Shown here: positions 21,639 to 50,209 of the stretch, one piece after another
Numbering within the stretch: position 1 is the first letter of the stretch
Layout of the letters: every line of letters begins with the position of its first letter
Assembly: GCA_022842305.1 (NCBI GenBank)
Contig: JALHPY010000011.1
Span: forward strand, 1,227 to 65,226
Source of the DNA: Rubrivivax sp.
Lineage (GTDB): Bacteria > Pseudomonadota > Gammaproteobacteria > Burkholderiales > Burkholderiaceae_C
DNA length: 64,000 nt
Direction of reading: 5' to 3'
Notes under the pieces: model-generated
What the model was told of the DNA's origin: nothing
The model's database searches: none
Seen by the model: the letters and a program-made list of their open reading frames with translations, nothing else
Translations under genes and position numbers: made by a program

Positions 21639-21640
21639 TC

Positions 21641-29252: not shown

Positions 29253-32694
<3,442 letters not shown>

Positions 32695-34483: not shown

Positions 34484-34752
34484 CGGACCAGCTTCTTGCG
34501 CTTGGCGTCCAGCTTGGACTGCAGTCTCTCCAGAACGGTCTCGACCGGTATCGATGCGCCCGTCCGGTGGTACTCCTCGGACGCTGCTTGCGCGCGGGCA
34601 TGGAAGGCGGTCTGGACGCGCCGGAAGGCGATGGCGCTGCGCACGGTCGCCTCGACGAAGTCGGTCAGGGTCTCGCCCTGCCTGAGCACGGACTCGAGTT
34701 CAGCGCGCAGTTCGGGCTCGACGCGGATCTGGGGTATGACGGCGGACTTCAT
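34480..34752 (-). CDS. Ribbon-helix-helix-type antitoxin partner of the ParE-like toxin
   Basis: 90 aa, with an N-terminal beta-strand/helix pattern (IPQIRVEPELRAELESVL). Translationally coupled to the toxin. Confidence 0.6.
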   Translation of the reverse strand: MKSAVIPQIRVEPELRAELESVLRQGETLTDFVEATVRSAIAFRRVQTAFHARAQAASEEYHRTGASIPVETVLERLQSKLDAKRKKLVR

Positions 34753-34953
34753 CGGCGCAGTGTATTGCGTTTGCGTTGCGTTCGCAGATGGGCCGGCAGG
34801 TGTCGCCGTTCGAGATGGATGGGGTAGTCGGTTGTCGGCCGGGAACAGTCCTCGAAGGCGGGCTGCTACGCCGCAGGCCGCATGTCGTTTCGTGGTTCGT
34901 TGCTGGCGCGGCCACTGAATGGCTAAAATGGCCAGTCACTGAAGGAGCCACCG

Positions 34954-35223
34954 ATGCGAGTTACCGCCACCGAAGCCAAGAACCGCTTTGGCAGCCTCTG
35001 CGCCCAGGCCAAGCGCGAACCGGTGTTCGTGGAGAAGGCTGGTCAACTCGACACAGTGATTCTCTCGGCCGAGCAATACCAAGCCCTCCAGGCGCACCAG
35101 GACAAGGCCAGCCGCGCTGCGCGCAAGAAGGCGTTCGAGGCCGACTTTGGCGACTGGATTGCCGCCCAGAACGCCCGCTTTGAAGCGCATGGCGCACCTG
35201 GGGCCGACTTGCGCCCGTGGTGA
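34954..35223 (+). CDS. Antitoxin with Phd/YefM-like N-terminus and CcdA-like C-terminus
   Basis: The N-terminus VTATEAKNRFGSLCAQAKREPVFVEKAGQLDTVILSAEQYQAL is Phd/YefM-like. The C-terminus DWIAAQNARFEAHGAPGADLRPW resembles the CcdA toxin-binding tail. Confidence 0.65.
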   Translation: MRVTATEAKNRFGSLCAQAKREPVFVEKAGQLDTVILSAEQYQALQAHQDKASRAARKKAFEADFGDWIAAQNARFEAHGAPGADLRPW

Positions 35224-35230
35224 GAGCCCG

Positions 35231-35545
35231 ATGGCCCAGTACGACGTCTTCGCCAACCCGAGCAGCAGCGCAACCACCGGGATCCCATACGTGGTCGTGC
35301 TCCAGAGCGATCTGCTCGATGCCCTGGCCACGCGTCTGACCATTCCATTGGCCGTTCTGGATTTCGCGGGCAAGGTTCCGACAGCGCTTTGTCCGGTCGT
35401 CATGGTCAAGGGTAAGCGCCTGCATGCGCTGGCGCACTATGCCGCGCCTCTGCCGGTCAAGGTGTTGCGGCGACCGGTGGACAACGTGGCGGCACAGGCC
35501 AGCGCGCTGGTGGCAGCCATGGACGCGGTGCTGTCGGGTTTCTAG
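35231..35545 (+). CDS. ccdB: CcdB-family toxin (gyrase-poison family)
   Basis: ATG at 35231. The pattern MAQYDVF...YVVVLQSDLLDALATRLTIPL...LCPVV...AMDAVLSGF follows the CcdB family consensus. Confidence 0.8.
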   Translation: MAQYDVFANPSSSATTGIPYVVVLQSDLLDALATRLTIPLAVLDFAGKVPTALCPVVMVKGKRLHALAHYAAPLPVKVLRRPVDNVAAQASALVAAMDAVLSGF

Positions 35546-35758
35546 TTCGTGCGGAGCCGGATGACCGCTTTGCGACAACGGAGCCGGGAAGTCGGCTGTC
35601 GCTTCAGGGTGTGCGCCGACCGCCACCCGCCACCCGCCGCGCGAAGCAGACACACGCCTGCACCGCCCAGGCGATAGTCGACAAGAAAACCAGAGCGCAG
35701 CGGCGCACATTAGGATGGCCCGTCCGGCCCTTCAGGGGCCCATCAACAGGGGAAGCGG

Positions 35759-37240
35759 ATGACGGGCGAAGCGGACAGCGGCAAGCTGCTGGTACTGGGT
35801 GCCAGTGGCTATGTCGGCACGCACCTGGTGCCCTTTCTCACGGCGCGCGGCCACACGGTGCGCGCTGCCGCGCGCCGGCTGGATGCGCTGCAGGCGCGCG
35901 CCTGGCCCGGCGTGGAACTCGTCGCCGCCGACGCGCTGGACCCGGCCAGCCTTGACCGCGCGCTGCAAGGCGTGCGCGTCGCCTACTACCTGGTGCATTC
36001 GATGGCCGCGGGCGCGGACTTCCCGCAGCTCGACCGCGACGCCGCCACCGGCTTTGCCGCCGCCGCGGCGCGCGCCGGCGTGCAACGCATCGTCTACCTG
36101 GGCGGGCTGCTGCCTTCGGGCGGCGCCTCGGCCCACCTGGCTTCGCGCGGCGAGACCGGCGACATCCTGCGCGCGGGCCCGGTGCCGGTGACCGAACTGC
36201 GCGCCGGCGTCATCATCGGCCCGGGCTCGGCCGCGTTCGAAGTCATACGCGACCTGGTCTTCCACCTGCCGGCCATGGTCACGCCCAAGTGGGTGACATC
36301 GCGCTCGCAGCCCATCGCGCTGGCCGACGTGCTGGAGTACCTGGAGCAGCTGCCGCGCATCCAAGCCGCGGCCGGTGGCATCTACGACGTGGGCGGCCCC
36401 GAGGTGCTGACCTACAAGCAGCTGATGCAGCAGTTCGGCGCGCTGGTGGGGCGCAAACCGCTCATCGTGCCGGTGCCGGTGCTCACGCCGCGGCTGTCGT
36501 CGTACTGGCTCAACCTGGTGACGGCCGTGCCCACCAACGTGGCGCGGGCGTTGATCGAAGGGCTGGAGCACGACGTGCTGGCCGACAACGCGGCCATACA
36601 GGCGCTGATCCCGCTGCCGCTGAAGACCTACCGCGAGGCCGCGCGCGCAGCCTTCGAGGCCGAGGGCGCGCCGCCGGATGCCGATGCCGGGCGTGGCCGC
36701 TGGACCGATGGCTCGATGCTCTACCGCCAGAACCGCCCCGACTTCGCCTTCTACGCCAAGCGCATGCAGGCCGAGGCCCAGGCGCAGTGTGGTGCGGACG
36801 CGCTGTGGGCCGAGGTGCAGGCCATCGGCGGGGCCAATGGCTACTACTACCTGGACGCGCTGTGGCAGGTTCGCGGCCAGTTGGACCGGGTGCTCGGCGG
36901 CAGCGGCCTGACGCGCGGCCGCCGCCACCCGCAGGAGCTGGCGCTGGGCGAGGCCATCGACTTCTGGCGCGTGGTGGCGCTGGAGCCCGGCCACCGGCTC
37001 ACGCTGCTGGCCGAGATGAAACTGCCCGGATCGGCCGCGCTGGGCTTCGAGGTGCTGGCCCAGGAAGGCGGGCGCAGCAAGGTCGTGGTCACCGCGTACT
37101 TCCACCCGGCGGGCGTGCGCGGCCTGCTGTACTGGCATGCGCTGACGCCGGCGCATGCCGTGATCTTTCCGGGCCTGGCCCAGGCCATCGTGCGGCGGGC
37201 CGAGGCCCGCGCCCGCACGGTGGCGGACGCAAAGGCTTAG
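35759..37240 (+). CDS. NAD(P)-binding SDR/NmrA-like domain fused to a DUF2867-like C-terminal domain
   Basis: N-terminal LVLGASGYVGTHLV Rossmann motif. The C-terminal half is typical of DUF2867 fusions. Confidence 0.7.
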   Translation: MTGEADSGKLLVLGASGYVGTHLVPFLTARGHTVRAAARRLDALQARAWPGVELVAADALDPASLDRALQGVRVAYYLVHSMAAGADFPQLDRDAATGFAAAAARAGVQRIVYLGGLLPSGGASAHLASRGETGDILRAGPVPVTELRAGVIIGPGSAAFEVIRDLVFHLPAMVTPKWVTSRSQPIALADVLEYLEQLPRIQAAAGGIYDVGGPEVLTYKQLMQQFGALVGRKPLIVPVPVLTPRLSSYWLNLVTAVPTNVARALIEGLEHDVLADNAAIQALIPLPLKTYREAARAAFEAEGAPPDADAGRGRWTDGSMLYRQNRPDFAFYAKRMQAEAQAQCGADALWAEVQAIGGANGYYYLDALWQVRGQLDRVLGGSGLTRGRRHPQELALGEAIDFWRVVALEPGHRLTLLAEMKLPGSAALGFEVLAQEGGRSKVVVTAYFHPAGVRGLLYWHALTPAHAVIFPGLAQAIVRRAEARARTVADAKA

Positions 37241-37713
37241 GTGCCGGCGCGCTTGGCCTCGGGCAGGTACATGTCCAGCAGCTGAACGCGCGTGGCGCGC
37301 AGGCGCTCGGACACCACGCCCATCAGGCGCAGCATGAAGGCCATGCCGAACTCCGGGTCGGCCTTGAAGGCGGCCAGCAGCTGCTCGCCCTCGAAGGCCA
37401 GCGCCGTGACCGGCGCCAGCGCACGCGCCTGGAAGTGCTTGCCGGCGTTCGACAGCACGGCAGACCAGTCGAATTCGTCGCCGGCAAACAGCGTCTGCAC
37501 GCGCATCACGGTGCCGGGCATCTCGAGCTCCAGCGCGACCATGCCTTCGCCCAGCAGGTAGAAGACGGAGTGGGTGTCGCCTTCGTGGAAGATGATCTGG
37601 CCGCTTTCGAAGTGCACCTGCCGGGCCAGCGAGGCCAGCTTCTCGGTGTGCTCGGCGCGGAAGCCAGAGACGAAGGGATGCTTCTGCAGCACAGGCAACA
37701 GGGAATCGGACAT
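37237..37713 (-). CDS. Stand-alone cyclic-nucleotide-binding-domain protein (no DNA-binding domain)
   Basis: 158 aa. FHEGDTHSVFYLLGEGMVALEL...FAGDEFDWSA is a cNMP-binding/Crp-sensor-type beta-roll. The protein ends before any HTH. Confidence 0.7.
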   Translation of the reverse strand: MSDSLLPVLQKHPFVSGFRAEHTEKLASLARQVHFESGQIIFHEGDTHSVFYLLGEGMVALELEMPGTVMRVQTLFAGDEFDWSAVLSNAGKHFQARALAPVTALAFEGEQLLAAFKADPEFGMAFMLRLMGVVSERLRATRVQLLDMYLPEAKRAGT

Positions 37714-37809: not shown

Positions 37810-37823
37810 TTGACCTTGCTCAA
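37810..37823. promoter_or_regulatory. FNR/CRP-family-like box TTGACcttgCTCAA (8/10)
   Basis: First of three spaced boxes in the divergent cNMP-protein/nfnA-like intergenic region. Confidence 0.3.
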
Positions 37824-37842: not shown

Positions 37843-37856
37843 TTCATCTGGATCAA
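37843..37856. promoter_or_regulatory. FNR/CRP-family-like box TTCATctggATCAA (9/10)
   Basis: Second box; the centre-to-centre distance to the first box is 33 bp. Confidence 0.4.
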
Positions 37857-37892: not shown

Positions 37893-37906
37893 TTGATCTA
37901 ACGCAA
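37893..37906. promoter_or_regulatory. FNR/CRP-family-like box TTGATctaaCGCAA (8/10)
   Basis: Third box, about 120 bp upstream of the ATG at 38024. Confidence 0.3.
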
Positions 37907-38023
37907 GAACCCGCAGGGGTACGCCGCTACTCTGGCCGCCAACACGGATCGTGCGGCCATGGCCCCGATGTGACCCGAGCCAGAGGCCACGCCGGCGCAG
38001 CGCCGCCACGCAAGGGGACAAGC

Positions 38024-38890
38024 ATGGCCGAGTTCGAGATCGTCGCGCGCGCCGATTTTTCCGACGTCACCTATTTGCTCGAGGTGAAGCATCCGCTGAT
38101 GGCCCGCGCCGCCAGGCCGGGCCAGTTCGTGATCGTCATGGAGCACGAACACGGTGAGCGCATACCGCTGACCATCGCCGACTTCGACCGCGACAAGGGC
38201 ACCATCACCCTGGTCATCCAGGCGGTGGGCAAGACCACGCAGGAGATGCAGCAGAACTGCCGCGTCGGCACCCATCTGCACGCGCTGGTGGGCCCCATGG
38301 GCATCCCCAGCCACATCGGCAAGGCCAGGAAGGTGGTGTGCGTGGGCGGCGGCCTGGGCGTGGCGCCCATCTACCCGCAGGCCCGTGCCTACAAGGAAAG
38401 CGGCGCCTACGTCATCGGCGTGCTGGGCTTCCGCAACAAGGGCCTGATGTTCTGGGAAGACAAGTTCCGCGCCTGCTGCGACGAGCTCATCGTCTGCACC
38501 GACGACGGCTCGGCCGGCATCAAGGGCCTGGTCACCGCGGGCATCCAGCAGGCGATCTCGGCGCACGCCGACATCGACGAGGTCGTGGCCATCGGCCCGC
38601 CCATCATGATGAAGGGCTGCGCCGACACCACGCGCCCCTTCGGCATCAAGACCATGGTCAGCCTGAACCCGGTGATGGTGGACGGCACGGGCATGTGCGG
38701 CGGCTGCCGCGTGAAGATCGGCGACGGCATCAAGTTCGCCTGCGTCGACGGCCCCGACTTCGACGGGCACCAGGTCGACTTCGACGACCTGATGGCACGT
38801 CTGGGCCGCTACAAGCCCACCGAGAAGGCAGCGCTGCAGGCCTGGCAAGACAGCTGCCGCCTGCGCGGCGGTGCCGGGCATAACCACTGA
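38024..38890 (+). CDS. PyrK/NfnA-like FAD/NAD(P)-binding 2Fe-2S oxidoreductase subunit
   Basis: ATG at 38024. ...RIPLTIADFD..., VCVGGGLGVAPI, and a C-terminal MCGGCRV...FACVDGPDF cluster motif. Confidence 0.8.
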   Translation: MAEFEIVARADFSDVTYLLEVKHPLMARAARPGQFVIVMEHEHGERIPLTIADFDRDKGTITLVIQAVGKTTQEMQQNCRVGTHLHALVGPMGIPSHIGKARKVVCVGGGLGVAPIYPQARAYKESGAYVIGVLGFRNKGLMFWEDKFRACCDELIVCTDDGSAGIKGLVTAGIQQAISAHADIDEVVAIGPPIMMKGCADTTRPFGIKTMVSLNPVMVDGTGMCGGCRVKIGDGIKFACVDGPDFDGHQVDFDDLMARLGRYKPTEKAALQAWQDSCRLRGGAGHNH

Positions 38891-38907
38891 GGCGCCGGAA
38901 GACACCC

Positions 38908-40416
38908 ATGGCCAAGAAGAAAACCATCCGCAGCATCCCCCAGGCGCGCACGCCCATGCCCGAGCAGGCACCGGAAGAGCGCATCAAGAACTTCGACGAG
39001 GTCGCCTGCGGCTACCGGCTCGAGGACGCCCTGGTCGAGGCTGAGCGCTGCCTGGACTGCGCCGACCAGCCCTGCGTGCGCGGCTGCCCGGTGGGCATCG
39101 ACATCCCCGGCTTCATCCGCAAGATCAGCGACAAGAACTTCCACGGCGCCTACGACGTCATCACCGACACCAACCTGCTGCCCAGCGTGTGCGGCCGTGT
39201 CTGCCCGCAGGAAAGCCAGTGCGAAGGTGTGTGCACCGTGGGCGAGACGCTGGAGCCGGTGGCCATCGGCCGCCTGGAGCGCTACGTCGGCGACATGGCC
39301 ATCGCCCAGGGCTGGAGCAACATCCCCTACATCGAGAAGCAGCCCTTCAAGGTGGGCATCGTCGGCTCGGGCCCGGCCGGCATGGCCTGCGCCGCCGACA
39401 TGGCCAAGGCCGGCTGCGACGTGACGGTGTACGAGGCGTTTCATGAGCCCGGCGGCGTGCTCAAGTACGGCATCCCCGACTTCCGCCTGCCCAACAGCGT
39501 GGTGGATGTCGAGATCGGCAAGCTGCGCCAGCTGGGCATCAAGTTCGAGAACAACACGCTCGTGGGCCGGCTGTTCACGCTGGAGCAGATGCTGGGCGAA
39601 CTGGGCTTTCACGCGGTCTTCGTGGGCACGGGCGCGGGCTATCCCAGCTTCATGGGCATTCCGGGTGAATCACTCGGTGGCGTGCTCTCGGCCAACGAAT
39701 GGCTGACGCGCTGCAACCTGATGCGCGGGCGCGACTTTCCCAGCTTCGACACTCCGCTGCAGCCGGGCAAGCGCGTGGCCGTGATCGGCGCCGGCAACAC
39801 CGCGATGGACGCCATGCGCGTGTCGCTGCGCGTGGGCGCCGAGAAGGTCTACTGCGTCTACCGCCGCAGCGCCGCCGAGGCCCCGGCGCGGGTCGAGGAA
39901 ATCCACCACGCGCAGCAGGAAGGCATCGAATTCCTCTGGCTCACCAGCCCGCTGGAACTGCTGGGCGACGAGAAGAACAACGTGCGCGGCATGCGCTGCG
40001 AACGCATGGAACTGGGCGAGCCCGACAGCTCGGGCCGGCGCAAGCCGGTGCCGGTGCCCGGCAGCGAATTCGAGCTCGAGACCGACATGGTGGTCTTTGC
40101 CATCGGCACCAACGCCAACCCCATCCTGGGTCAGACCTCGGGCCTGAAGCTCAACAAGCGCGGCTACATCGAGTGCGACGAGAACCTGGCCACCTCGATC
40201 GCCGGGGTCTATGCCGGGGGCGACATCGTCACCGGCGCGGCCACCGTGATCATGGCCATGGGCGCCGGCCGCAAGGCGGCGCGCGGCATGAAGGCCTACC
40301 TGGGCCTGCGCGACACCGAGGCCGTGTACGCACCTGCAGCCGCCGACGACCCGGTGGCGCGACTGTTCGGCATCGACCGCCGCGAGCGCGGCTTCGCGCG
40401 CCTGCATTTGGCTTGA
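38908..40416 (+). CDS. GltD/NfnB-like NAD(P)H-dependent oxidoreductase subunit (2x4Fe-4S plus FAD)
   Basis: CLDCADQPCVRGCP and CGRVCPQESQCEGVC motifs, then VGIVGSGPAGMACA and VIGAGNTAMD dinucleotide-binding motifs. Confidence 0.85.
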   Translation: MAKKKTIRSIPQARTPMPEQAPEERIKNFDEVACGYRLEDALVEAERCLDCADQPCVRGCPVGIDIPGFIRKISDKNFHGAYDVITDTNLLPSVCGRVCPQESQCEGVCTVGETLEPVAIGRLERYVGDMAIAQGWSNIPYIEKQPFKVGIVGSGPAGMACAADMAKAGCDVTVYEAFHEPGGVLKYGIPDFRLPNSVVDVEIGKLRQLGIKFENNTLVGRLFTLEQMLGELGFHAVFVGTGAGYPSFMGIPGESLGGVLSANEWLTRCNLMRGRDFPSFDTPLQPGKRVAVIGAGNTAMDAMRVSLRVGAEKVYCVYRRSAAEAPARVEEIHHAQQEGIEFLWLTSPLELLGDEKNNVRGMRCERMELGEPDSSGRRKPVPVPGSEFELETDMVVFAIGTNANPILGQTSGLKLNKRGYIECDENLATSIAGVYAGGDIVTGAATVIMAMGAGRKAARGMKAYLGLRDTEAVYAPAAADDPVARLFGIDRRERGFARLHLA

Positions 40417-40429
40417 ATCTGGAGACAGC

Positions 40430-42322
40430 ATGAACGACACCGCCACCCTGGTGCGGCCGGCCGCGCCCCGCGCCGCCACCGTGCTTTCCGAGCACATCGT
40501 CGAGGTCATCAGCGACTCGGGCGAAGGCGCGCAGCGCTGCGGCCAGAGCCTGGCGGCCATCGCCGCGCGCATGGGCAACGGCATCTGGACGACCGAGATC
40601 ATCCCGGCCGAGATCCAGCCGCCGGCACGCAGCGTGGCCGGCGCCAGCGGCATCCGCATCCGCATGGGCAGCGAACGCGTCACCAACGGCGGCGACGAGA
40701 CCGACATGGTGGTGGCCTTCAACGAACAGGTGCTGATCGGCCGCGTGCAGGCCAGGGAGCTGAAGCCCGGCGCCACCATCCTGCTGGAAAGCATGTGGGC
40801 CAAGCACCGCGACCCGGCGGTGGTGGCCAGCTACCAGAAGACCGTGGCCGCGCTGCGCGAAGACGGCTTCGACGTGCACGAGGTGCCGCTGGAAGAGCGC
40901 TGCAAGGAGCTGGTGAACGACCCGCGCAAGGGCAAGAACATGTTCGTTCTGGGCCTGCTGTGCAACCTGTACGGGCTGGACGCGCAACTGGCACGCGACC
41001 AGATCGCGCGCATCTTCGGCAAGAAGGACGACAAGGTCATCAAGCAGAACGTGGCGCTGTACGAAGCCGGCGCGGCCTGGGGCGAGGCGAACCTGCCCTT
41101 CAAGTACCGCATCCCGGCCAAGAAGGTGACCGAGCCGCAGCTGGTGATCAACGGCAACACGGCGGTCGCCCTGGGCGTCATGGCCGCCGGCATGGACATC
41201 TGCGCCATGTACCCCATCACCCCGGCCACCTCGGCCTCGCACTACCTGAGCGAGGCCTTCGAGAAGGTGGGTGGCCTGGTGCACCAGGCCGAAGACGAGA
41301 TCGCCGCCTGCGCCTTTGCCGTGGGCGCCAGCTACGCCGGCAAGTGCGCCGTCACCATCACCTCGGGCCCGGGTTACTCGCTCAAGCAAGAGGTCATCGG
41401 CCTGGCGGTGATGGCCGAGATCCCGCTGGTGGTGGTCAACGTGCAGCGCGGCGGCCCCAGCACCGGGCAGCCCACCAAGGTGGAGCAGGGCGACCTGCTC
41501 ACCGCCATCTACGGCAGCCACGGCGACGCGCCCAAGGTGGTGCTGGCGCCCAACGGCATCGAGGACTGCTTCTACTCGATGATCACGGCGCGCAAGATCG
41601 CCGAGACCTTCGGCATGGTGGTGGTGGTGCTGTCCGACGCCAGCCTCTCCACCGCGCAGCAACCCTTCGCGCGGCCGCAGTTCAGCGAAGACTGGCTGGC
41701 CCCGCCGGTCGATCTGACCCCGGTGCCCCCGGGCGCCAAGCCCTACGACTGGGACCCGGTCACCGGCCTGTCGCGGCGCTTCCAGCCCGGCCAGCCTGGC
41801 GGCATGCACACCCTCACCGGACTGGCACACGACCGCAACAGCAAGGTCGCCTACGACCCGGCCATCAATGAAGAAGGCCTGCACATGCGCAGCCTCAAGC
41901 TGGCGGCGCTGCAGAAGACGCTGTCGCCGCCCACGGTCTTCGGCGGCAACGACGGTGAGCTGTTGCTGGTGGGCTGGGGCAGCACCATGGGCGCGATCGA
42001 AGAGGCCGTGTCGCGGCTGCGCGGCGAAGGCCTGGCGGTGTCGTCGATGCACCTGCGCTTCATCCAGCCGCTGCCTTCGGGCATCCGCGAGATCCTGCGC
42101 CGCTTCAACAAGGTGATGACGATCGAGGGCAACTGGTCCGACAAACCCGACGACGAACTCATCGACGAAGACAACCGCCGCTACTCGGCGCTGGCCATGA
42201 TGCTGCGCGCGCGCTTCCTGGTCGACATCGACTGCTGGAGCGAGGCCCGCGGCCGCCCCATCAAGCCCGGCGACATCTGCCGCGTTGCCCGTCAAGCCCT
42301 GCAAGCAAAGGCCAAGTCATGA
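40430..42322 (+). CDS. korA: 2-oxoglutarate (2-oxoacid):ferredoxin oxidoreductase subunit alpha (gamma-alpha fusion type)
   Basis: 630 aa. ...SGEGAQRCGQSLA..., ...MYPITPATSASHYL..., ...VVNVQRGGPSTGQPTK... Confidence 0.85.
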   Translation: MNDTATLVRPAAPRAATVLSEHIVEVISDSGEGAQRCGQSLAAIAARMGNGIWTTEIIPAEIQPPARSVAGASGIRIRMGSERVTNGGDETDMVVAFNEQVLIGRVQARELKPGATILLESMWAKHRDPAVVASYQKTVAALREDGFDVHEVPLEERCKELVNDPRKGKNMFVLGLLCNLYGLDAQLARDQIARIFGKKDDKVIKQNVALYEAGAAWGEANLPFKYRIPAKKVTEPQLVINGNTAVALGVMAAGMDICAMYPITPATSASHYLSEAFEKVGGLVHQAEDEIAACAFAVGASYAGKCAVTITSGPGYSLKQEVIGLAVMAEIPLVVVNVQRGGPSTGQPTKVEQGDLLTAIYGSHGDAPKVVLAPNGIEDCFYSMITARKIAETFGMVVVVLSDASLSTAQQPFARPQFSEDWLAPPVDLTPVPPGAKPYDWDPVTGLSRRFQPGQPGGMHTLTGLAHDRNSKVAYDPAINEEGLHMRSLKLAALQKTLSPPTVFGGNDGELLLVGWGSTMGAIEEAVSRLRGEGLAVSSMHLRFIQPLPSGIREILRRFNKVMTIEGNWSDKPDDELIDEDNRRYSALAMMLRARFLVDIDCWSEARGRPIKPGDICRVARQALQAKAKS

Positions 42323-43311
42323 GCCGCACCCTGAACCAATGCGTCATCAAGCTCCACGAGGAGCACCACGCGCTCGAGGACTACCAGGGCGGCGTGCCGC
42401 GCTGGTGCAACGGCTGCGGCGACAACGCCATCCTGGCCGCGATGCAGCGCCTGTGCAGCGAGGAAAACCTGGCGCCCGAGAACACCGTGTTCGTGTCCGG
42501 CATCGGCTGCAGCAGCCGCCTGCCGCACTACATGAAGACCTACGGCTTCCACAGCCTGCACGGCCGCGCCTTCCCGGTGGCCGAAGGCATCAAGATGGCG
42601 CGGCCCGACCTCAACGTGTTCGTGAGCACCGGCGACGGTGACTGCTGCAGCATCGGTGCGGCGCACTGGATCCACGCGCTGCGCTACAACATGAACATCA
42701 CCGTGGTGCTGCACGACAACCACGTCTACGGCCTGACCAAGAAGCAGGCCTCGCCCACCAGCCCCAAGGGCTTCAAGAGCAACACCACGCCCTACGGCGC
42801 GACGCTGGAGCCCATGAATCCGCTGACGGTGTCGCTGGGCGTGCAGGGCGCGTCTTTCGTGGCCCAGGCGGTGGACTGGGTGCCCGAGGCGCTGTACGAC
42901 ATCATGCAGGCGGCCTTCAGGCACCGCGGCTTCAGCTTCGTGCGCGTGCTGCAGCGCTGCCCCGAGTTCATGCCCAAGGCCTTCGACCCCTGGCTGCACG
43001 ACCCGCAGCGCACGCAGCTGCTCACGCACGCCAACGGCCTGCAGCTCAGCCCCACGCTGGCCAGCGCCTACCGCAACCAGCTGGCGCACGACCCGCGCGA
43101 CATCGACCGCGCGCGCGAGATCGCCTCGATGGACGACCCCATCCCCGTGGGCATCCTCTACCGCAACCCCGACGCGCCCTGCTACGAAGACCTGCGCAAC
43201 GCCGGCCAGCTGCGCAGCCCGGCCGCCATCCGCAGCGGCCTGGACCGCGAGTTCGACAAGTTCACCTTCTGGCCCGAAGGCGCCGAAGGCGACGCGGCAC
43301 GAGCCGCCTGA
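42319..43311 (+). CDS. korB: 2-oxoglutarate (2-oxoacid):ferredoxin oxidoreductase subunit beta (TPP-binding)
   Basis: 330 aa. ...WCNGCGDNAIL..., ...SGIGCSSR..., GDGDCCSIG TPP motif. 4-nt overlap with korA. Confidence 0.88.
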   Translation: MSRTLNQCVIKLHEEHHALEDYQGGVPRWCNGCGDNAILAAMQRLCSEENLAPENTVFVSGIGCSSRLPHYMKTYGFHSLHGRAFPVAEGIKMARPDLNVFVSTGDGDCCSIGAAHWIHALRYNMNITVVLHDNHVYGLTKKQASPTSPKGFKSNTTPYGATLEPMNPLTVSLGVQGASFVAQAVDWVPEALYDIMQAAFRHRGFSFVRVLQRCPEFMPKAFDPWLHDPQRTQLLTHANGLQLSPTLASAYRNQLAHDPRDIDRAREIASMDDPIPVGILYRNPDAPCYEDLRNAGQLRSPAAIRSGLDREFDKFTFWPEGAEGDAARAA

Positions 43312-43321
43312 GAGACCAGCG

Positions 43322-45520
43322 ATGGACATGCAATCCAAGAGCCCCGACAAACACCAGGACCAGCTGGTCTTTCACCTCAGCGGCCGCTGCACCGGCGAAG
43401 GCCTGGCGCCCATAGTCGGCCTGGGCCTGCGCCCGGCGCTGCTGGCGCCTTACCGTGATCTGGGCGCGCTGCGCCACGACTTCCCGCTGGTGCTGGCCGC
43501 CCGGCCCGGCGCTGCGGGCTTTGCCCAGACGCTGTCGGACATGGTCGACGCCGTGCTGCGCGACGTGGCCCCGCGCGGCACCGAAGGCGAGCGCCTGCGC
43601 CGCCAGGTGCTGCAGGTCGAGACCGAGATCCGCCGTGCCGTCGACGCCGGCGCCCAGGGCCTGCTGGCCGAGCTGTGGGAAGCCGCGGCCGAGCGCGTGG
43701 CCGCGCGTCAGGGCACCGCGCCCGATGACGTGATGCAGCAGGTGCTGTCGCTCACCGGCGGCGCACTGCGCGCCGACGGCACGCTGGTCGGCTGCACGGC
43801 CGAGATGCCGGCGCGCGTGCTCACCCACGCCTGGCAGCAGGCGCAGCAGGCCAAGGCGCGGCGCTTCCGCACCGAGCTGGCGCGGCTGGTGCAGCAGCTG
43901 TCGGACATCCTGCGCGCCGCCTACAGCCATTCGCAGGCCGGGCGCGCGCCGCAAAGCCTGCGCGCGGCGCTGGGCGGGCCGCACCGCAACCAGTTCAACT
44001 TCGACGCGCTGTCGCGCATCGTCGGCAAGGGCGTGCCGCGCGACGAACTGCCGCCGGCGCGGCGCGCGCGCCTGGTGCAGTCGCTGGCTGCGCTCGAGGC
44101 GCAGCGCTTCTTTGCGCTGGCCGACGACGAACCCGGCCCCGAGCTGCATGGCTTCGCCTTCGACAACTGCGCTGCCGCGGCGCAGGCCTTCCGCGAGCGC
44201 CTGGGCGAACTGACGCAACTGGTCAAGGCCCTGGGCATCGCGGCGCTGGAAGTGCGCGGCGCCTACGTCGAATCCGAGCACGACCTGTTCTTCGAGGCCT
44301 TCGACGAGCACGCGCTCACCGCCGACGACCTGGCGCGTTTCCCCGATTACCTGGTGTGCATCCCGCCCGATCGCAACGACGCGGCCGAGAATGCCTCGAT
44401 GATGGAGATGCTGTCCAGCGGCCTGCCGGTCAAGGTGCTGGTACAGACGGGCGACCTGCTCGAAACCTCTTCGATAGGCACCGGCCGCTTTGCCTTCGGC
44501 GTGCGCAGCGCGCGCCTGGCGACCACGGCCATGGGCCTGGGCGGCATGTTCGTGCTGCAGACCGCTGCGGCCAGCCTGTACACCCAGCGCGAGCGCATCG
44601 CGCAGGGCCTGGCCGCGGCCGGGCCGGCGCTGTTCAGCGTGTACGCTGCCGCGGGCCCCGAGACGCTGACGCTGCCGCCCTACCTGGCCGGCGCCGTGGC
44701 CACGCATTCGCGCGCCTTCCCCAGCTTCTGCTACGACGCCGCCGCGGGCGGCGACTGGGCCACGCGCTTCACGCTGGCGCACAACCCGCAGCCCGACGAC
44801 GACTGGCCGCTCGAGACGCTGGAATACGCCGACGACAAGCTGCAGCGCGTGCGCGAGCAGCTGCACTTCAGCTTTGTCGACTTCGCGCTGGTCGACCCGC
44901 GCAACGCCCACCACTTTGCCTTGGTGCCGCGTGCGCGCTGGGGCGCCGAGATGCTGCCGGTGGCCGACTGGCTGGCGCTGCCCGAGGCCGAGGCCGCCGC
45001 GCGCGTGCCCTATGTGCTGACAGTGGACGCGCAGGACCAGCTGCAGCGCGTCATCGTCGACGCGCGCCTGATGCAGGCCGCGCGCCGCTGCCTGCTGCTG
45101 TGGCGCCGCCTGCAAGAGCACGGCGGCATCAACGACTCGCACGCCGTGCGCGCACTGGCCCAGGAGCGTGCCGCCCAGGCAGCCCAGCCTGCGGCCGCAG
45201 TGGTTGCCGCCCCGGCCGCGCCGGTGGCTGCAGCGCCCGAGGCCGCCGTGGCCGAGGCACCGGCCCGTTCACGCGACGAGGCCTGGATCGACACGGCGCG
45301 CTGCCCCAGCTGCAACGAATGCCAGCTGATCAACGACCGCATGTTCACGTACGACGAGCGCAAGCAGGCCTACATCAAGGACATCACGGCCGGCACCTAC
45401 CGGCAGCTGGTGGAGGCCGCCGAGAGCTGCCAGGTCGCCATCATTCACCCCGGCAAGCCGCGTGACCCGGGCGAGCCGGGGCTTGAAGAGCTGCTGGCGC
45501 GCGCCGAACCCTTCAGGTGA
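43322..45520 (+). CDS. Large protein of unknown function with a C-terminal single-cluster ferredoxin domain
   Basis: 732 aa, starting 10 nt after korB. An Ala/Pro linker is followed by a C-terminal CPSCNEC...C(QVAII) single [4Fe-4S]/[3Fe-4S]-type ferredoxin motif. I recognise no other motif with confidence. Confidence 0.6.
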   Translation: MDMQSKSPDKHQDQLVFHLSGRCTGEGLAPIVGLGLRPALLAPYRDLGALRHDFPLVLAARPGAAGFAQTLSDMVDAVLRDVAPRGTEGERLRRQVLQVETEIRRAVDAGAQGLLAELWEAAAERVAARQGTAPDDVMQQVLSLTGGALRADGTLVGCTAEMPARVLTHAWQQAQQAKARRFRTELARLVQQLSDILRAAYSHSQAGRAPQSLRAALGGPHRNQFNFDALSRIVGKGVPRDELPPARRARLVQSLAALEAQRFFALADDEPGPELHGFAFDNCAAAAQAFRERLGELTQLVKALGIAALEVRGAYVESEHDLFFEAFDEHALTADDLARFPDYLVCIPPDRNDAAENASMMEMLSSGLPVKVLVQTGDLLETSSIGTGRFAFGVRSARLATTAMGLGGMFVLQTAAASLYTQRERIAQGLAAAGPALFSVYAAAGPETLTLPPYLAGAVATHSRAFPSFCYDAAAGGDWATRFTLAHNPQPDDDWPLETLEYADDKLQRVREQLHFSFVDFALVDPRNAHHFALVPRARWGAEMLPVADWLALPEAEAAARVPYVLTVDAQDQLQRVIVDARLMQAARRCLLLWRRLQEHGGINDSHAVRALAQERAAQAAQPAAAVVAAPAAPVAAAPEAAVAEAPARSRDEAWIDTARCPSCNECQLINDRMFTYDERKQAYIKDITAGTYRQLVEAAESCQVAIIHPGKPRDPGEPGLEELLARAEPFR

Positions 45521-45575: not shown

Positions 45576-46019
45576 TCAGTGCAGTACCAGCAGCGGCAGC
45601 CTGGACCCCGCCAGCACCGCCTTGGTGTGCGAGCCGAACAGGAACTCGCCGAAGGCGCCGCGCCCGTGCGTGACCATCACGATCATGTCGCAGCCTTGGG
45701 CCTCGGCCACGGCGATGATGGCCTTGTCGATGCGTGGCACGTGGTCGTGCACGCCGGTGAAGGGCACGCCGGCGGCGCGTGCCGCTTCCTCGAAGCGCCC
45801 CAGCACCTGGCGCGCGTGCGCTTCGGTGCGGGCTTCGTGCTCCTTGACGTCCTCGACCCACAGCGAATGCGGGCGCGTTTCGCTCAGGGCGGGCTGCATG
45901 GGCTCGGCGATGAAGCCGGTGATGGCCGCCCCCAGCTGGCGCGCCAGGGCCACACTTTCGTGCATGGCGCGATCCGACAGGTCGCTGCCATCGACGGGTA
46001 CGAGTAGACGTTTGTACAT
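45576..46019 (-). CDS. Universal stress protein (UspA family)
   Basis: ATG at 46019 (MYKRLLVPVDGS...). C-terminal ...MVTHGRGAFGEFLFGSHT... ATP-binding-type motif. Confidence 0.85.
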   Translation of the reverse strand: MYKRLLVPVDGSDLSDRAMHESVALARQLGAAITGFIAEPMQPALSETRPHSLWVEDVKEHEARTEAHARQVLGRFEEAARAAGVPFTGVHDHVPRIDKAIIAVAEAQGCDMIVMVTHGRGAFGEFLFGSHTKAVLAGSRLPLLVLH

Positions 46020-46252
46020 GGCGCGCTCCGCTTGCACGACCCTTGGTAATGTTTCAAGGTCGGCAAGTCTAGGGAGCGCTCGCTGCACGGAACTTGCGCT
46101 AAGCCAAACTCGGCCCGCATACCCCCCGGCCGAGGGATGAGGGGAAGTACGCAGAGCCGGAACGCGTGGCGTATGCCCGCCGCCACCGATCGCTCCGTTC
46201 GCTGCTGCTCAGGCCGAACAGCGCGCCCTCGCCAGGCTTGTGGCCCGGCGTT

Positions 46253-46696
46253 TCAGCTGCGCGGCGAGCCCGCGCTGCTGAAGCCTTCGCGGCGCAGCGC
46301 TTCGCAGTTGAAGTCTTCCATCTCGGGGTCGAGCACGCTGCGCGCGCTGACGATGCCCACGGCACGCTGGCCATCCACCACGGGCAGGTGGCGCACGCCG
46401 CGCTCCTGCATCAGCTGCAGCGCAAAGCCGAACAGGCGTTCGGGGCCCACGGTACAGGGCGCGGGCGTCATGACTTCGGCCAGTGGTGTGGCCGCGGGGT
46501 CGCGGTCGCAGGCCAGCACGCGGCGCAGCGCATCGCGCGCGGTGAAGATGCCGGCCAGGCGGTCGCTGTCCACCACCAGCAGCGCGCTGGCGGCGGTCTC
46601 GGTCATCAGGCGCGCGGCTTCGCGAACACTGGTCTGCGGCGCAGCGACGACAAGACGCTCTCGCGCCATCACGTGCCGGACCCGTTCATTGAACAT
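46253..46696 (-). CDS. CBS-domain pair protein
   Basis: 147 aa with two CBS repeats (...VREAARLMTETAASALLVVD... and ...ALQLMQERGVRHLPVVD...). Confidence 0.8.
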   Translation of the reverse strand: MFNERVRHVMARERLVVAAPQTSVREAARLMTETAASALLVVDSDRLAGIFTARDALRRVLACDRDPAATPLAEVMTPAPCTVGPERLFGFALQLMQERGVRHLPVVDGQRAVGIVSARSVLDPEMEDFNCEALRREGFSSAGSPRS

Positions 46697-46908: not shown

Positions 46909-48198
46909 CTAGCGGGCGATCATGCCCAGTTGCTGCGGCAGCCACAGCGACAAGGGCGGCCAGTACGTGATGATCATCAAGAACACCAGCATCGTGAGCA
47001 GCCACGGCCACACCGCCACCGACATGTCGGTGAGGCCCAGCTTGCTGATGCCGCTGGCCACGTACAGGTTCAGACCCACTGGCGGCGTGATCATGCCGAT
47101 CTCCATGTTCACCGTGATCAGCACGCCGAAGTGGATGGGGTCGATGCCCAGCTTCATGGCGATGGGGAACAGGATGGGCGCGGTGATCAGGATGATCGAC
47201 GACGGCTCCATGAAGCTGCCCATCACCAGCAGCAATATGTTCACGGCCAGCAGGAAGCCGATCGGGCCCAGGCCGCTGTTGAGCAGGTACTCCGCCACCA
47301 CCTGCGGAACGTTCTCGTGCGTGAGCAAGAAGGAGAACAGCACCGCGTTGGTGATGATGTACAGCAGCATCGCGCTCATGTTGGCCGAAGCCAGCAGCGT
47401 CTTGGGCACGTCCTTCAGGCCCATGTCCTTGTAGACGAAGACGGCCACGAAGAAGGCATAGGCAGCGCTCATGGCGGCGGCCTCGGTGGGCGTGAAGATG
47501 CCCGAATAGATGCCGCCCATGACCACCACGATCAGCGCCAGGCCCCAGAAGGACTCGCGGAACGCGGTGGCGCGCTCGCGCCAGGTGGCGCGCTTTTCCT
47601 TCGGATAGCCGTTGCGCCAGGCGCGGTAGAAGGTGGTGAACATCAGCATCGCGGCCAGCACCAGGCCCGGAATGACACCGGCCATGAACAGCGCACCGAT
47701 GGAACTGTTGGTGGACACCGCGTACATCACCATCACGATGGACGGCGGAATCAGGATGCCCAGGCCGCCCGACGAGGCCACGACGCCGGCACCGAACTTG
47801 ACCGGATAGCCCGCCTTCACCATGGCCGGCAGCAGGATGGCGCCGATGGCCACCACGGTGGCCGGGCTGGAGCCCGAGACCGCGGCAAACAGCGCGCAGG
47901 CCACCACCGCGCCCAGCCCCAGGCCGCCGGGCCAGTGGCCCACCAGCGAGGTGGCAAAGCGGATCATGCGTTTGGCCACCCCGCCGTGGGTGAGGAAGTT
48001 GCCCGCCAGGATGAAGAACGGGATCGCCATGATCTCGAACTTCTCGATGCCGGTGAACAGCTTGAGCGCCACCGACTCGATGGGCACTTCGGTGAAGAAG
48101 AACAGGAAGGACAGCACCGTGAGGCCGAGCGAGATCGACACCGGCATGCCGGTGAGCATGAGCACGGCCAGCAACAGGAAGATGATGGCGCCGTTCAT
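46909..48198 (-). CDS. dctM: TRAP C4-dicarboxylate-type transporter large permease
   Basis: ATG at 48198 (MNGAIIFLLL...). 429-aa DctM-like protein. ATGA overlap with dctQ. Confidence 0.88.
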   Translation of the reverse strand: MNGAIIFLLLAVLMLTGMPVSISLGLTVLSFLFFFTEVPIESVALKLFTGIEKFEIMAIPFFILAGNFLTHGGVAKRMIRFATSLVGHWPGGLGLGAVVACALFAAVSGSSPATVVAIGAILLPAMVKAGYPVKFGAGVVASSGGLGILIPPSIVMVMYAVSTNSSIGALFMAGVIPGLVLAAMLMFTTFYRAWRNGYPKEKRATWRERATAFRESFWGLALIVVVMGGIYSGIFTPTEAAAMSAAYAFFVAVFVYKDMGLKDVPKTLLASANMSAMLLYIITNAVLFSFLLTHENVPQVVAEYLLNSGLGPIGFLLAVNILLLVMGSFMEPSSIILITAPILFPIAMKLGIDPIHFGVLITVNMEIGMITPPVGLNLYVASGISKLGLTDMSVAVWPWLLTMLVFLMIITYWPPLSLWLPQQLGMIAR

Positions 48199-48896
48199 TT
48201 GCGGTCTCCAGAGCGGGGCTTGTCGTTGTCGGAATCCGAGGGCTGAAGCGGGTGCATGTCGTCCTGCATGCGGAACACGCGGTCTTCGGTGCCGGGCGCG
48301 GGGAGTTCTTCCTCGAGGCCATCGACGTGGCCGTGGTCGTGGTGCGGCAATTCGCCGGTGCGCACGAAGGACACGCAGACCTGCAGGAAGCGGAAGCACA
48401 TCAGGTACGAACCGATGGGCACCGCGCAGTAGACGATCCAGGTGGGCATCTCCAGGTCAGGGGTGGTGGGGCCTTCGTAGAGGCTGTCACCGGCCATGCC
48501 CACGGCGTTGAACACCGCGTAGTGCATGCCGTTTTCCCAGACGAAGACCCAGCCGAGCGTGCCGATGATGCTGGTGAACAGGGCGCCCGCCAGCAGGCCG
48601 AAGATGATGAACTTCGAGCGCAGGCTGTCCTTCATGCGGTTGATGAGCACGTCCACGCCGACGTGGATGCCGGTGCGCACGCCGTAGGCGGCGCCGAACT
48701 TGGCCATCCACACGAACATGATGATGCAGAGCTCCTGCGCCCAGCCGAAGTGCAGCGTGAGCAGCCAGTCCTGCACGCCGGGTATCGCCAGGCCCGAGGC
48801 GTAGCGGTGCATCACGGCCACGAAGATGATCGTCGTGGCCGCTCCCATCAGGAACATGACCAGCCATTCCTCGAGGTGGTCCAGTAGCCTGAACAT
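48195..48896 (-). CDS. dctQ: TRAP transporter small permease with a roughly 50-aa His/acidic C-terminal extension
   Basis: 233 aa. A 4-TM DctQ core is followed by GELPHHDHGHVDGLEEELPAPGTEDRVFRMQDDMHPLQPSDSDNDKPRSGDRK. Confidence 0.8.
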   Translation of the reverse strand: MFRLLDHLEEWLVMFLMGAATTIIFVAVMHRYASGLAIPGVQDWLLTLHFGWAQELCIIMFVWMAKFGAAYGVRTGIHVGVDVLINRMKDSLRSKFIIFGLLAGALFTSIIGTLGWVFVWENGMHYAVFNAVGMAGDSLYEGPTTPDLEMPTWIVYCAVPIGSYLMCFRFLQVCVSFVRTGELPHHDHGHVDGLEEELPAPGTEDRVFRMQDDMHPLQPSDSDNDKPRSGDRK

Positions 48897-48971
48897 GTTG
48901 TGGTCTCCTCTGCGCAGCGGTGGCGCCGGTGCTATGCAACCGGGCCGCCACTGGCGGCCCGGAACGGGTCA

Positions 48972-49979
48972 TCAGAGCTTGCTGGGATCGAAGCCCGTGG
49001 CCTTGTAGACCGAATCGATGACTTCCTTGCCGATGCGCGACTCCATCTCCTTGTGGACCTTCACCATCGCCTTCTTCAGGGCCAGCCGTTCGGCCGGTGT
49101 CGGCGTGTAGACCTGCGTCTTGCCCGAGGCCTTGACCTTCTCGAGCGCGGAGTCGTTCTCCTCCTTGGCGATCTTGTTGGCGTAGACCGTGGCCTCGGCC
49201 ATGGCCTTCTCGAGCTGGCCGCGCACGTCGGCCGGCAGCCCGTCCCAGAACTTCTTGTTGGTGATGACGGCATAGCCCAGATAGCCGTGGTCGGTCACCG
49301 TCATGTGCTTCTGCACTTCGTGCATCTTCTGCGTGTACAGGTTGGAGTGCGGGTTCTCGGTGCCGTCCACCACGCCGGTCTGCAGCGCCTGGTAGACCTC
49401 TGAGAAGGCCATCACCTGCGGCAGGGCGCCCACGGCGCGCATCTGCGCTTCAAGCGCCTTGGACGACTGGATGCGCATCTTCATGCCCTTGAAGTCGTCG
49501 GGCGACTTCAGCGGCTTGTTGGCCGAGAACGACTTGAAGCCGTTGTCCCAGTAGGCCAGGCCGGTGATGCCGCGGGTGCCGAGCTTGTCGAAGAGCTGCC
49601 GACCCACCGCGCCGGTGGTCACGGCGTGCAGATCGCTGGCGTTGTCGAAGATGAACGGCAGGTCGAAGAGTTCGAACTCGCGCACGCCCAAGGGGCCGAA
49701 CTTGGCCAGCGAGGGCGCCAGCATCTGCACGGCGCCGATCTGCAGCGCCTCCATCTCTTCCTTGTCCTTGTACAGGGTGCTGTTGGCGTAGACCTCGACC
49801 TTGACCTTGCCACCCGTCAGTGCGGCGGCGCGTTCGGCAAAGAAGTCGCTGGCCTTGCCCTTGGGCGTGTCCTTGGCAACAACGTGGCTGAACTTGATGA
49901 CCAGCGGCTGCTGGGCCGCGGCAAGCATGGTGAAGCCCGCGGCCACGAGGCCGATGGTGAGCTGGCGCAGATTGATCAC
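48972..49979 (-). CDS. dctP: TRAP transporter periplasmic solute-binding protein (DctP family)
   Basis: GTG at 49979 after GAGGAG. Signal peptide, and a sequence typical of DctP C4-dicarboxylate binders (...GAVQMLAPSLAKF...FDLPFIF...). Confidence 0.85.
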   Translation of the reverse strand: MINLRQLTIGLVAAGFTMLAAAQQPLVIKFSHVVAKDTPKGKASDFFAERAAALTGGKVKVEVYANSTLYKDKEEMEALQIGAVQMLAPSLAKFGPLGVREFELFDLPFIFDNASDLHAVTTGAVGRQLFDKLGTRGITGLAYWDNGFKSFSANKPLKSPDDFKGMKMRIQSSKALEAQMRAVGALPQVMAFSEVYQALQTGVVDGTENPHSNLYTQKMHEVQKHMTVTDHGYLGYAVITNKKFWDGLPADVRGQLEKAMAEATVYANKIAKEENDSALEKVKASGKTQVYTPTPAERLALKKAMVKVHKEMESRIGKEVIDSVYKATGFDPSKL

Positions 49980-50097
49980 TTCAGAACTCCTCTGGTGGGT
50001 CGATGAAAACCGCGAAGCCGCGGGCCTGGATGGCCGGGCTGGCACTCACCGCAAGGTGAATGCGCCGAGAATGCCCCCACCACTGGCAGGCCGCCAT

Positions 50098-50150: not shown

Positions 50151-50209
50151 GGCGTCCCGCCGGCCCGGTTGGCCGGGGCGCTTGCGGGCGGGCGTGGCGG
50201 GGCGGGGCC

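Follow-up and report, generated by a model that had tools for sequence, protein, structure and literature searches.

A candidate electron-transfer module of NfnAB, KorAB and a tethered-ferredoxin protein in Rubrivivax

How does a two-subunit 2-oxoglutarate:ferredoxin oxidoreductase (OGOR) that lacks a ferredoxin module connect to the redox pools of the cell? Genome-based metabolic models usually leave this connection open. The question is posed by five consecutive genes on a 64,000-nucleotide stretch of DNA from Rubrivivax sp. (assembly GCA_022842305.1, contig JALHPY010000011.1, positions 1,227 to 65,226; hereafter the window), which encode an NfnAB-type flavoprotein pair (genes A and B), a KorAB-type oxidoreductase (genes C and D) and a 732-residue protein ending in a single-cluster ferredoxin (gene E). 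Our data reveal that korA, korB and gene E form a conserved core, to which the ferredoxin:pyridine-nucleotide enzyme is joined in exchangeable form, either as soluble Nfn or as membrane-bound Rnf. They also point to an origin of protein E from the C-terminal half of a pyruvate:ferredoxin oxidoreductase (PFOR) with a tethered ferredoxin; in the window, protein E probably passes electrons between KorAB and NfnAB.

The five-gene operon and its recurrence

The operon consists of the following genes:

38024-38890, plus strand: gene A, NfnA; PRK06222 at 380 bits and PF10418 (DHODB_Fe-S_bind)
38908-40416, plus strand: gene B, NfnB; PF14691 (Fer4_20) and PF07992 (Pyr_redox_2), TIGR01316 at 580 bits, over its cut-off
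40430-42322, plus strand: gene C, KorA; PF01558 at residues 31-215, PF01855 at 249-407 and PF17147 at 510-570, TIGR03710 at 507 bits
42319-43311, plus strand: gene D, KorB; PF02775 (TPP_enzyme_C) and PF12367 (PFO_beta_C), STGDGD at residues 103-108
43322-45520, plus strand: gene E, 732 aa; Fer4_13 at residues 656-709 as the only Pfam match

These five plus-strand open reading frames (ORFs) at 38024-45520 are separated by 17, 13, -4 and 10 nt, just as the initial annotation had read them, the start of korB overlapping the end of korA by 4 nt; the five parts that it had named are likewise all correct according to Pfam, NCBIfam and solved-structure matches. The G+C content at third codon positions (GC3) of genes A to E is 0.91-0.96, typical of real genes in a window of 68% GC, and inside the cluster neither a promoter-like site nor an intergenic terminator-like site was found. 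Gene A more likely starts at the ATG at 38024, which AAGGGGA precedes, than at a GTG further upstream (37970); the alignments of homologues, which begin at residue 1-6, fit this start. The next genes 3' of E lie on the opposite strand: a convergent universal stress protein gene (45576-46088) and a gene for a tandem-CBS protein (46253-46696).

We followed the recurrence of this arrangement in loci from a one-genome-per-species scan, which gave 80 loci with relatives of E, and from a metagenome scan and contig look-ups, which added more; each locus was scored only where upstream DNA sufficed. Co-conservation in other genomes had been set beforehand as the check on the operon, and the five genes do recur together: among 121 loci in which E has at least 39% identity, the genes directly upstream are korB (103 of 103), korA (89 of 90), nfnB (81 of 82) and nfnA (74 of 74), and gene order and strand are identical in all scored loci. 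The median gaps from A to E, taken over about 80-120 other loci, are 15, 39, 2 and 33 nt. An arrangement that returns, in this order and orientation, in at least 74 further loci is far from anything that chance would give, and since the flanking genes vary from genome to genome, the five genes travel as a unit. The carriers are mainly Burkholderiales (Rubrivivax, Ideonella, Leptothrix, Aquabacterium, Casimicrobiaceae), joined by Sulfuritalea, Niveibacterium and Uliginosibacterium (Betaproteobacteria), some Lysobacterales and a marine metagenome-assembled genome (MAG) labelled Deltaproteobacteria.

Eleven loci contain an E with less than 39% identity. Among these, nfnAB is present in none of five, korB in eight of nine and korA in six of seven, and 3' of E there follow an rnfB-like gene, a giant PFOR-like gene and rnfC/D/G/E(/A). 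Locus L166, for instance, reads korA-korB-E-rnfB-like-PFOR-like-rnfCDGEA-apbE, and a complete genome of Ca. Latescibacterota shows this gene order too. We therefore rejected nfnAB as a universal partner of E: distant lineages have rnf instead, and what is conserved is korA-korB-E, with Nfn and Rnf exchanging for one another. A constant KorAB with interchangeable Nfn and Rnf is what would be expected if E carries ferredoxin-level electrons into or out of KorAB. The giant PFOR-like proteins of the rnf operons (1,475-1,590 aa) are encoded between the rnfB-like gene and rnfC (L131 13137-17639, L166 9559-13986, L165 13556-18142, and also in L111 and L085); they possess domains I and II and two Fer4 motifs, with neither an aligned thiamine diphosphate (ThDP) motif nor a tethered ferredoxin.

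NfnAB and KorAB are textbook families, and the members encoded here are readily placed. As judged from their sequences, genes C and D encode the two subunits of a KorAB-type 2-oxoacid:ferredoxin oxidoreductase (OFOR). KorA is a gamma-alpha fusion of OFOR domains III (POR), I (POR_N) and II (PFOR_II), whose best solved relative is the alpha subunit of Magnetococcus marinus OGOR (6n2n_A, 278 bits), and KorB is OFOR domain VI with ThDP and four Cys for a single [4Fe-4S] cluster (6n2n_B, 184 bits); compared with 6n2n_B it keeps WCNGCG, GIGCSS, STGDGD..HDN and RCPEF. The substrate is most likely 2-oxoglutarate, given the best match to the M. marinus OGOR and the generic subfamily models TIGR03710 and TIGR02177. 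The Pfam content of C and D includes no ferredoxin (domain V) module. In the (alpha-beta)2 one-cluster OFORs, the domain VI cluster is the only one and an external ferredoxin is needed (PMC12337175); the lack of domain V matches C and D to this architecture. The KorA of locus L131 (6471-8936, 821 aa) has an N-terminal extension matching DUF6538, which is either real or the product of a miscalled start.

Genes A and B are NfnAB by the sequence-level defining features of that enzyme. Gene A is PyrK-like, with FAD/NAD domains and a C-terminal [2Fe-2S] domain (PF10418 and PRK06222, both over cut-off), and scores 325 bits against the small subunit of Pyrococcus furiosus NfnI (5jca_S) and 251 bits against Thermotoga maritima 4ylf_A; its [2Fe-2S] motif, VDGTGMCGGCRV...FACVDGP, matches both column for column. 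Gene B is GltD-like, with N-terminal 2x[4Fe-4S], FAD and NADPH-binding domains (PF14691 and PF07992); it scores 582 bits across residues 13-465 against T. maritima NfnB (4ylf_B), relative to which both Cys motifs, CLDC..PCVRGCP and CGRVCPQESQCEGVC, are kept. Gene A is nearer to the bifurcating NfnI than to its paralogue NfnII/Xfn (325 bits for 5jca_S versus 173 bits for 5vj7_B), whereas the margin is small for gene B (582 bits for 4ylf_B and 494 bits for 5jca_L versus 468 bits for 5vj7_A). With the crystallised enzymes A and B share gene adjacency, gene order, domains and cluster motifs; they differ in that an OGOR and E are encoded in the same operon and that the hosts are mostly Proteobacteria with a facultative or aerobic way of life. 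NfnB also bears a C-terminal extension of about 37 residues (approximately 466-502; 40303-40416) without counterpart in the crystallised T. maritima and P. furiosus enzymes. This extension is found in all 82 operon homologues, 53-73% identical with that of the window when counted by alignment column, and could be a docking element. The called NfnA of a marine MAG (L081 4441-5553, 370 aa) carries an N-terminal extension matching DUF6538, again real or due to a miscalled start.

The descent of protein E

The closest match of protein E, at 79% identity, is in Rubrivivax sp. A210. Among 8,000 candidates scored, more than 1,400 proteins (90% clustering) are related to it at an E-value of 0.001 or less, and at 50% identity the family falls into 2,060 representative clusters, of which 856 have an E-value of 1e-30 or less; in the source databases its members are named 'hypothetical protein' or 'ferredoxin'. 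Neither in the window copy nor in 51 diverse relatives does the body of E match any Pfam or NCBIfam family, the ferredoxin domain being the only hit. An AlphaFold model made from 65 sequences (predicted local distance difference test, pLDDT, 86.6; predicted template-modelling score, pTM, 0.79) and the searches described below divide the protein into four parts:

43322-44311, plus strand: residues 1-330, helical N-terminal domain; mostly helical in the AlphaFold model, with high pLDDT
44312-45142, plus strand: residues 331-607, alpha/beta domain homologous to OFOR domain VI/beta subunit, from Foldseek, profile and BLASTP matches
45143-45283, plus strand: residues 608-654, Ala/Pro-rich flexible linker; pLDDT below 50 at 627-645
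45284-45520, plus strand: residues 655-732, single-cluster [4Fe-4S] ferredoxin domain (Fer4_13) and C-terminal helix

The ferredoxin domain, with its CxxCxxC...C pattern, is the one and only conserved cofactor site of E. Its ligands C661, C664, C667 and C703 are invariant in every alignment. Fer4_13 matches all 51 diverse family members (best E-value 1e-9), with the window copy at 24.0 bits against a cut-off of 24.5, and the family profile matches Desulfovibrio africanus ferredoxin I (1dax_A) with an E-value of 9e-7. The linker before this domain has a length of 53-112 residues in 77 homologues, and Ala and Pro together make up 41% of it in the median.

For the remainder of the protein, structure and sequence lead to the same relatives. 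When the whole model of E was compared with the PDB by Foldseek, the top 20 matches were all OFORs (Moorella and D. africanus PFOR as well as OFOR beta subunits). The TM scores were low (0.2) because E has several domains, and the search was therefore repeated with the domain cut out and modelled by itself (residues 300-625, pLDDT 86.2), which gave 21 matches at an E-value of 1e-3 or less, all of them OFORs, with TMq 0.30-0.44. Against the whole PDB, the family profile of E found residues 978-1118 (domain VI) of Moorella PFOR (6cin_A) at an E-value of 0.001. The profile comparison of E with KorB (hhalign) was in the right register and not significant (P 0.0076, probability 5%), and we do not use it alone as evidence.

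The most informative relative came from a search of a plasmid collection with E, which returned two matches only, one of them from Persicobacter. On plasmid pPP1 of Persicobacter psychrovividus (L168 8470-13359), an ORF of 1,629 residues encodes a complete PFOR followed by a C-terminal linker and a single-cluster ferredoxin (hereafter PFOR-Fd): POR_N, PFOR_II, POR, two Fer4 motifs and TPP_enzyme_C with GGDGSMYDIG. It lies directly 5' of rnfC and rnfD, which are followed by three ORFs that correspond, by size alone, to RnfG/E/A. In BLASTP, residues 271-732 of E align with 1142-1629 of this protein (28% identity, E-value 1e-57) and residues 17-107 with 741-844 (27% identity, E-value 2e-7). These alignments make E colinear with the C-terminal half of the long PFOR-Fd, that is, with domains IV/V to VI and the tethered ferredoxin.

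The same alignments indicate what E has lost. The CTACGKCYTACP loop, which is the first domain V Cys motif of the Persicobacter protein, is deleted in E, and no Fer4 match for the domain V dicluster (two CxxCxxCxxxCP) was obtained for the N-terminus of E in 51 members; by this evidence, the N-terminal domain is a remnant of PFOR domains IV/V from which the cluster-binding cysteines have disappeared. The GGDGSMYDIG of Persicobacter aligns with PPD---RNDAAEN in E, which is unconserved across the family and holds no invariant Asp or Asn, and in the family alignments both the proximal-cluster Cys and the GDG-X(25-30)-N motif for ThDP/Mg2+ are absent from the domain VI region. With the GDG..N motif, the proximal-cluster Cys, domains I-III and the domain V clusters lost, E cannot be a ThDP enzyme. 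Its alignments mark it as a derivative rather than a functional member of OFOR domain VI, with the tethered [4Fe-4S] cluster as the only cofactor site left. The sequence VQTGD (E 374-378) was considered as a degenerate GDG and rejected, as alignments to both KorB and the Persicobacter PFOR put the GDG position at 348-357. Two long relatives (P0230 and P0226) were likewise considered as KorA-E fusions and rejected: BLASTP against KorA gave no match, and the proteins are PFOR-like over their full length.

Long PFOR-Fd proteins (about 1,630-1,700 aa) with GxDG intact at the ThDP position are found, besides Persicobacter, in loci L112 (minus strand, 16731-21689), L128 (4138-9228) and L129 (9683-14644), the last with rnfC and rnfD matches downstream. 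We know of no prior description of a PFOR with a tethered ferredoxin. The occurrence of the same domain on ThDP-intact PFORs beside rnf suggests that the tethered ferredoxin is a recurring link from OFORs to ferredoxin:NAD(P) enzymes. Together with the korA-korB-E core and the exchange of Nfn for Rnf, these kin PFORs strengthen the proposal of the initial annotation that the operon is wired through its fifth protein.

Electron wiring, direction and rival readings

On balance we regard KorAB, E as its dedicated tethered ferredoxin, and NfnAB as the link to NAD(P)H, as parts of one electron-transfer module. KorAB, with just one [4Fe-4S] cluster and without a ferredoxin domain of its own, would hand electrons to E or receive them from it; the PFOR-derived body of E would probably be the docking scaffold on KorAB; the [4Fe-4S] domain would swing between the partners on its flexible Ala/Pro-rich linker; and NfnAB, a putative flavin-based bifurcating transhydrogenase, would join the ferredoxin of E to NADH and NADPH, a task that in other lineages would fall to Rnf. 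If the stoichiometry is that of Nfn, the overall reaction would be 2-oxoglutarate + CoA + NADH + 2 NADP+ <-> succinyl-CoA + CO2 + NAD+ + 2 NADPH. In T. maritima and P. furiosus, Nfn works physiologically with ferredoxins of the same kind as that of E, namely with a single [4Fe-4S] cluster. The docking of E on KorAB, the transfer of electrons from E to NfnB, the substrate, the direction and the regulation are points that we infer.

Several points weigh against this wiring. A body of about 600 residues is large for a mere tether, and E may have another role; NfnAB could act simply on the soluble ferredoxin pool; the 2-oxoglutarate specificity of KorAB is argued from family resemblance only, and some two-subunit OFORs are broad-spectrum; and the Rnf-type architecture is based on about ten loci from few lineages. 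Low-oxygen regulation, moreover, is not general, because FNR-like boxes were found in only 12 of 78 related loci. The box in the window is the following:

37843-37856, plus strand: FNR/CRP-type box candidate TTCATCTGGATCAA, about 170 nt 5' of gene A, with one mismatch to TTGAT-N4-ATCAA

It is one of four boxes with one mismatch in the window, where 0.25 would be expected (12690-12703, 20562-20575, 37843-37856 and 46967-46980); of these, one lies 5' of the nuo operon and one 5' of nfnA, and the nfnA promoter region contains two weaker boxes (37810-37823 and 37894-37907). The 12 of 78 loci with a box of at most one mismatch within 350 nt 5' of nfnA compare with a background of about 1%. We take the candidate FNR-type box upstream of nfnA as suggestive only and reject FNR control as a general feature.

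As for direction, we lean weakly towards an oxidative, NADPH-producing role under low oxygen. The context speaks weakly for it, with boxes 5' of gene A and of the nuo operon and with the universal stress protein and CBS genes downstream, and so does the fact that the characterised KorAB enzymes of facultative bacteria (Thauera, Azoarcus, Mycobacterium) work oxidatively. Alternatively, the module may run in the reductive direction: NfnAB would bifurcate electrons from 2 NADPH to NAD+ and the ferredoxin of E, and KorAB would be a 2-oxoglutarate synthase using succinyl-CoA and CO2, for anaplerosis, for glutamate supply from C4-dicarboxylates, or for CO2 assimilation. The type-B frdCAB and TRAP (tripartite ATP-independent periplasmic) DctPQM genes just 3' of the cluster are in favour of this direction, as is the FrdA homologue (83-89% identity) near E in six related genomes, which fits a route from fumarate via succinate and succinyl-CoA to 2-oxoglutarate; the closest solved KorAB is that of M. 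marinus, a reverse tricarboxylic acid (rTCA) cycle enzyme, and both Nfn and Rnf are reversible. However, neither ATP-citrate lyase nor succinyl-CoA synthetase nor other rTCA markers were seen in the window, the genes around the operon are very different from one genome to another, and carboxylation demands a ferredoxin of very low potential as well as a high NADPH/NADP+ ratio. With the oxidative character of the enzymes from facultative bacteria added to these objections, we hold the reductive direction to be possible though doubtful.

Somewhat more doubtful still is a mere co-expression without channelling, in which E would be the ferredoxin of KorAB, or one of several, and NfnAB a general transhydrogenase that balances the ferredoxin, NADH and NADPH pools of the cell, with no assembly between them. 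Known NfnAB enzymes do use free ferredoxin, and the replacement of Nfn by membrane-bound Rnf in other lineages means that a fixed soluble supercomplex is not universal. On the other hand, the linkage of nfnAB to korAB-E is near-invariable in the clade (81 of 82 and 74 of 74 loci), with very short gaps, NfnB carries an operon-specific conserved C-terminal extension, and the big conserved body of E, devoid of cofactors, demands some binding role. The opposite extreme, a stable KorAB-E-NfnAB supercomplex in which the body of E would dock on KorAB while its ferredoxin swings between the KorB cluster and the distal cluster of NfnB, seems to us unlikely.

It is more improbable again that E is a structural, protective or regulatory pseudo-subunit, for example an O2 shield for the KorAB cluster or a redox sensor, and not a carrier of flux. 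E is indeed a pseudoenzyme derived from PFOR, its hosts are largely facultative or aerobic Burkholderiales, and domain VII of D. africanus PFOR protects clusters (PMC12337175); yet the four-Cys ferredoxin domain is the most conserved feature of the E family, and the same tethered domain on ThDP-intact PFORs beside rnf points to electron delivery. That E is itself an enzyme, binding a substrate in the former ThDP pocket and using the tethered ferredoxin as electron source or sink, can hardly be upheld: invariant Arg, Asp, Lys and other residues do exist outside the ferredoxin domain (R51, D53, R247, R250, K371, Q413 and R464), but most invariant residues fall in structural motifs common to PFOR (e.g. 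SRAFP versus SRTYP), and 51 diverse members yielded neither a motif for cofactor binding nor a catalytic family of Pfam or NCBIfam.

Neighbourhood, known systems and significance

Directly 5' of the Nfn-Kor region lies a complete nuo-like operon (20748-34150, plus strand). Its NuoG-like protein is unusually short (486 aa), and a NuoCD fusion is suggested by a 460-aa protein in which the 49-kDa domain is confined to residues 187-460. In three other loci (L004, L009, L011) a homologue of NuoN (73-75% identity) likewise stands 5' of the five-gene cluster. The nuo operon is separated from an NmrA/DUF2867 gene (35759-37240) by two ORFs, at 34172-34918 (plus strand) and 34961-35710 (minus strand), which have no Pfam match and failed the GC3 filter. 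Divergent from nfnA, the minus strand at 37237-37713 encodes a 158-aa protein with a cyclic-nucleotide-binding domain only, homologues of which (56-83% identity) occur at nine related clusters, in six upstream and divergent and in three just 3' of E. On the other side, 46909-53922 (minus strand) comprises TRAP dctPQM and then type-B frdCAB/sdhCAB with a single cytochrome b subunit of 286 aa; the loci in which an FrdA homologue follows E within a few kb are L002, L003, L006, L009, L011 and L016. A multihaem cytochrome cluster at 7456-20459, beside the nuo operon, encodes an MtrC-like protein (13827-16712), an MtrA-like protein (17300-18298), an MtrB/PioB porin (18360-20459) and two more multihaem/NapC-like proteins (7456-9624 and, on the minus strand, 10049-11467), and looks like a conduit for extracellular electron transfer. 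Among the cytochrome genes are hydrogenase maturation genes: hypF (3591-5945), hypD (6186-7334) and a hypE-like gene of the AIR-synthase family (11602-12651).

Several known systems resemble this one. The two-subunit KorAB enzymes of M. marinus (6n2n), Thauera aromatica, Hydrogenobacter thermophilus and Mycobacterium tuberculosis likewise combine a gamma-alpha KorA with a KorB containing ThDP and one [4Fe-4S] cluster and have no domain V/delta, but, as far as is known, they use free ferredoxins encoded elsewhere or nearby, whereas here a tethered-ferredoxin protein follows korB in every scored locus (103 of 103). The single-chain PFOR/NifJ enzymes (Moorella 6cin, D. africanus 1b0p) share the domain VI fold with E, and the long PFOR-Fd fusions share with it the colinear stretch from IV/V to VI and the linker-ferredoxin; E differs from both as a separate polypeptide after korB, without domains I-III. 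By analogy, E may also be compared with the lipoyl-domain swinging arms of 2-oxoacid dehydrogenase E2, in which a small carrier sits on a variable Ala/Pro-rich linker attached to a large core; the carrier of E is, however, an iron-sulfur domain that would move electrons and not acyl groups, and there is no sequence relationship.

The closest functional precedent is the 2-oxoglutarate:NADP+ oxidoreductase (KGOR) of Azoarcus evansii, a KorAB-type enzyme linked to NADP by a flavoprotein, one subunit belonging to the GltD/NfnB family (PMC10134865, citing Ebenau-Jehle 2003). Compared by description, it differs in that its flavoprotein is placed in clade v with NsoC, while NfnB is in clade iii, and the passages on it in this source mention neither NfnA nor an E-like protein (PMC10134865). 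The flavoprotein of our locus, by contrast, groups with true NfnB, has an NfnA partner and comes with E. In full-text literature searches, neither a link between nfnAB and korAB nor a description of E came to light. In a review of Nfn distribution and gene neighbourhoods the word oxoglutarate is absent (PMC6405883), and a study of a Riftia symbiont reports a 'PFOR-like' gene co-regulated with dimeric korAB (PMC11636981), which may or may not be a relative of E. The Azoarcus enzyme shows that an NADP-linked OGOR is not a new concept in itself; it is the nfnAB-korAB-E wiring and the E family that appear undescribed. What we regard as new is, firstly, a widespread unnamed PFOR-derived protein with a tethered ferredoxin that always accompanies this type of korAB, secondly, its near-obligatory linkage to nfnAB within one operon in Proteobacteria and, thirdly, a parallel linkage to rnf elsewhere.

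For the redox connection of OGORs without a ferredoxin module, the locus points to a solution that is specific and also widespread: a dedicated protein with a tethered ferredoxin would work together with Nfn, or with Rnf in other phyla. If this is true, a large unnamed family (about 2,000 clusters at 50% identity) would acquire a role and would provide a clear case of one half of a ThDP enzyme stripped of all cofactors save a swinging ferredoxin. In facultative Burkholderiales, a group abundant in soil and in activated sludge, Nfn-type bifurcation would then become a part of central carbon metabolism. Should a supercomplex exist, it would represent a new class of bifurcation-coupled 2-oxoacid oxidoreductase, with the Rnf-linked operons as its membrane-coupled counterpart, in which the low potential of 2-oxoglutarate oxidation would drive NADH-to-NADPH transhydrogenation; in reverse, CO2 would be fixed into 2-oxoglutarate with NADPH alone in oxygen-tolerant Proteobacteria. 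Metabolic models often take korAB as a marker of the reductive or reverse TCA cycle. If the proposed wiring holds, an Nfn-linked korAB in metagenomes could instead mean NADPH production from 2-oxoglutarate, or NADPH-driven synthesis of 2-oxoglutarate, and not the classical rTCA cycle.

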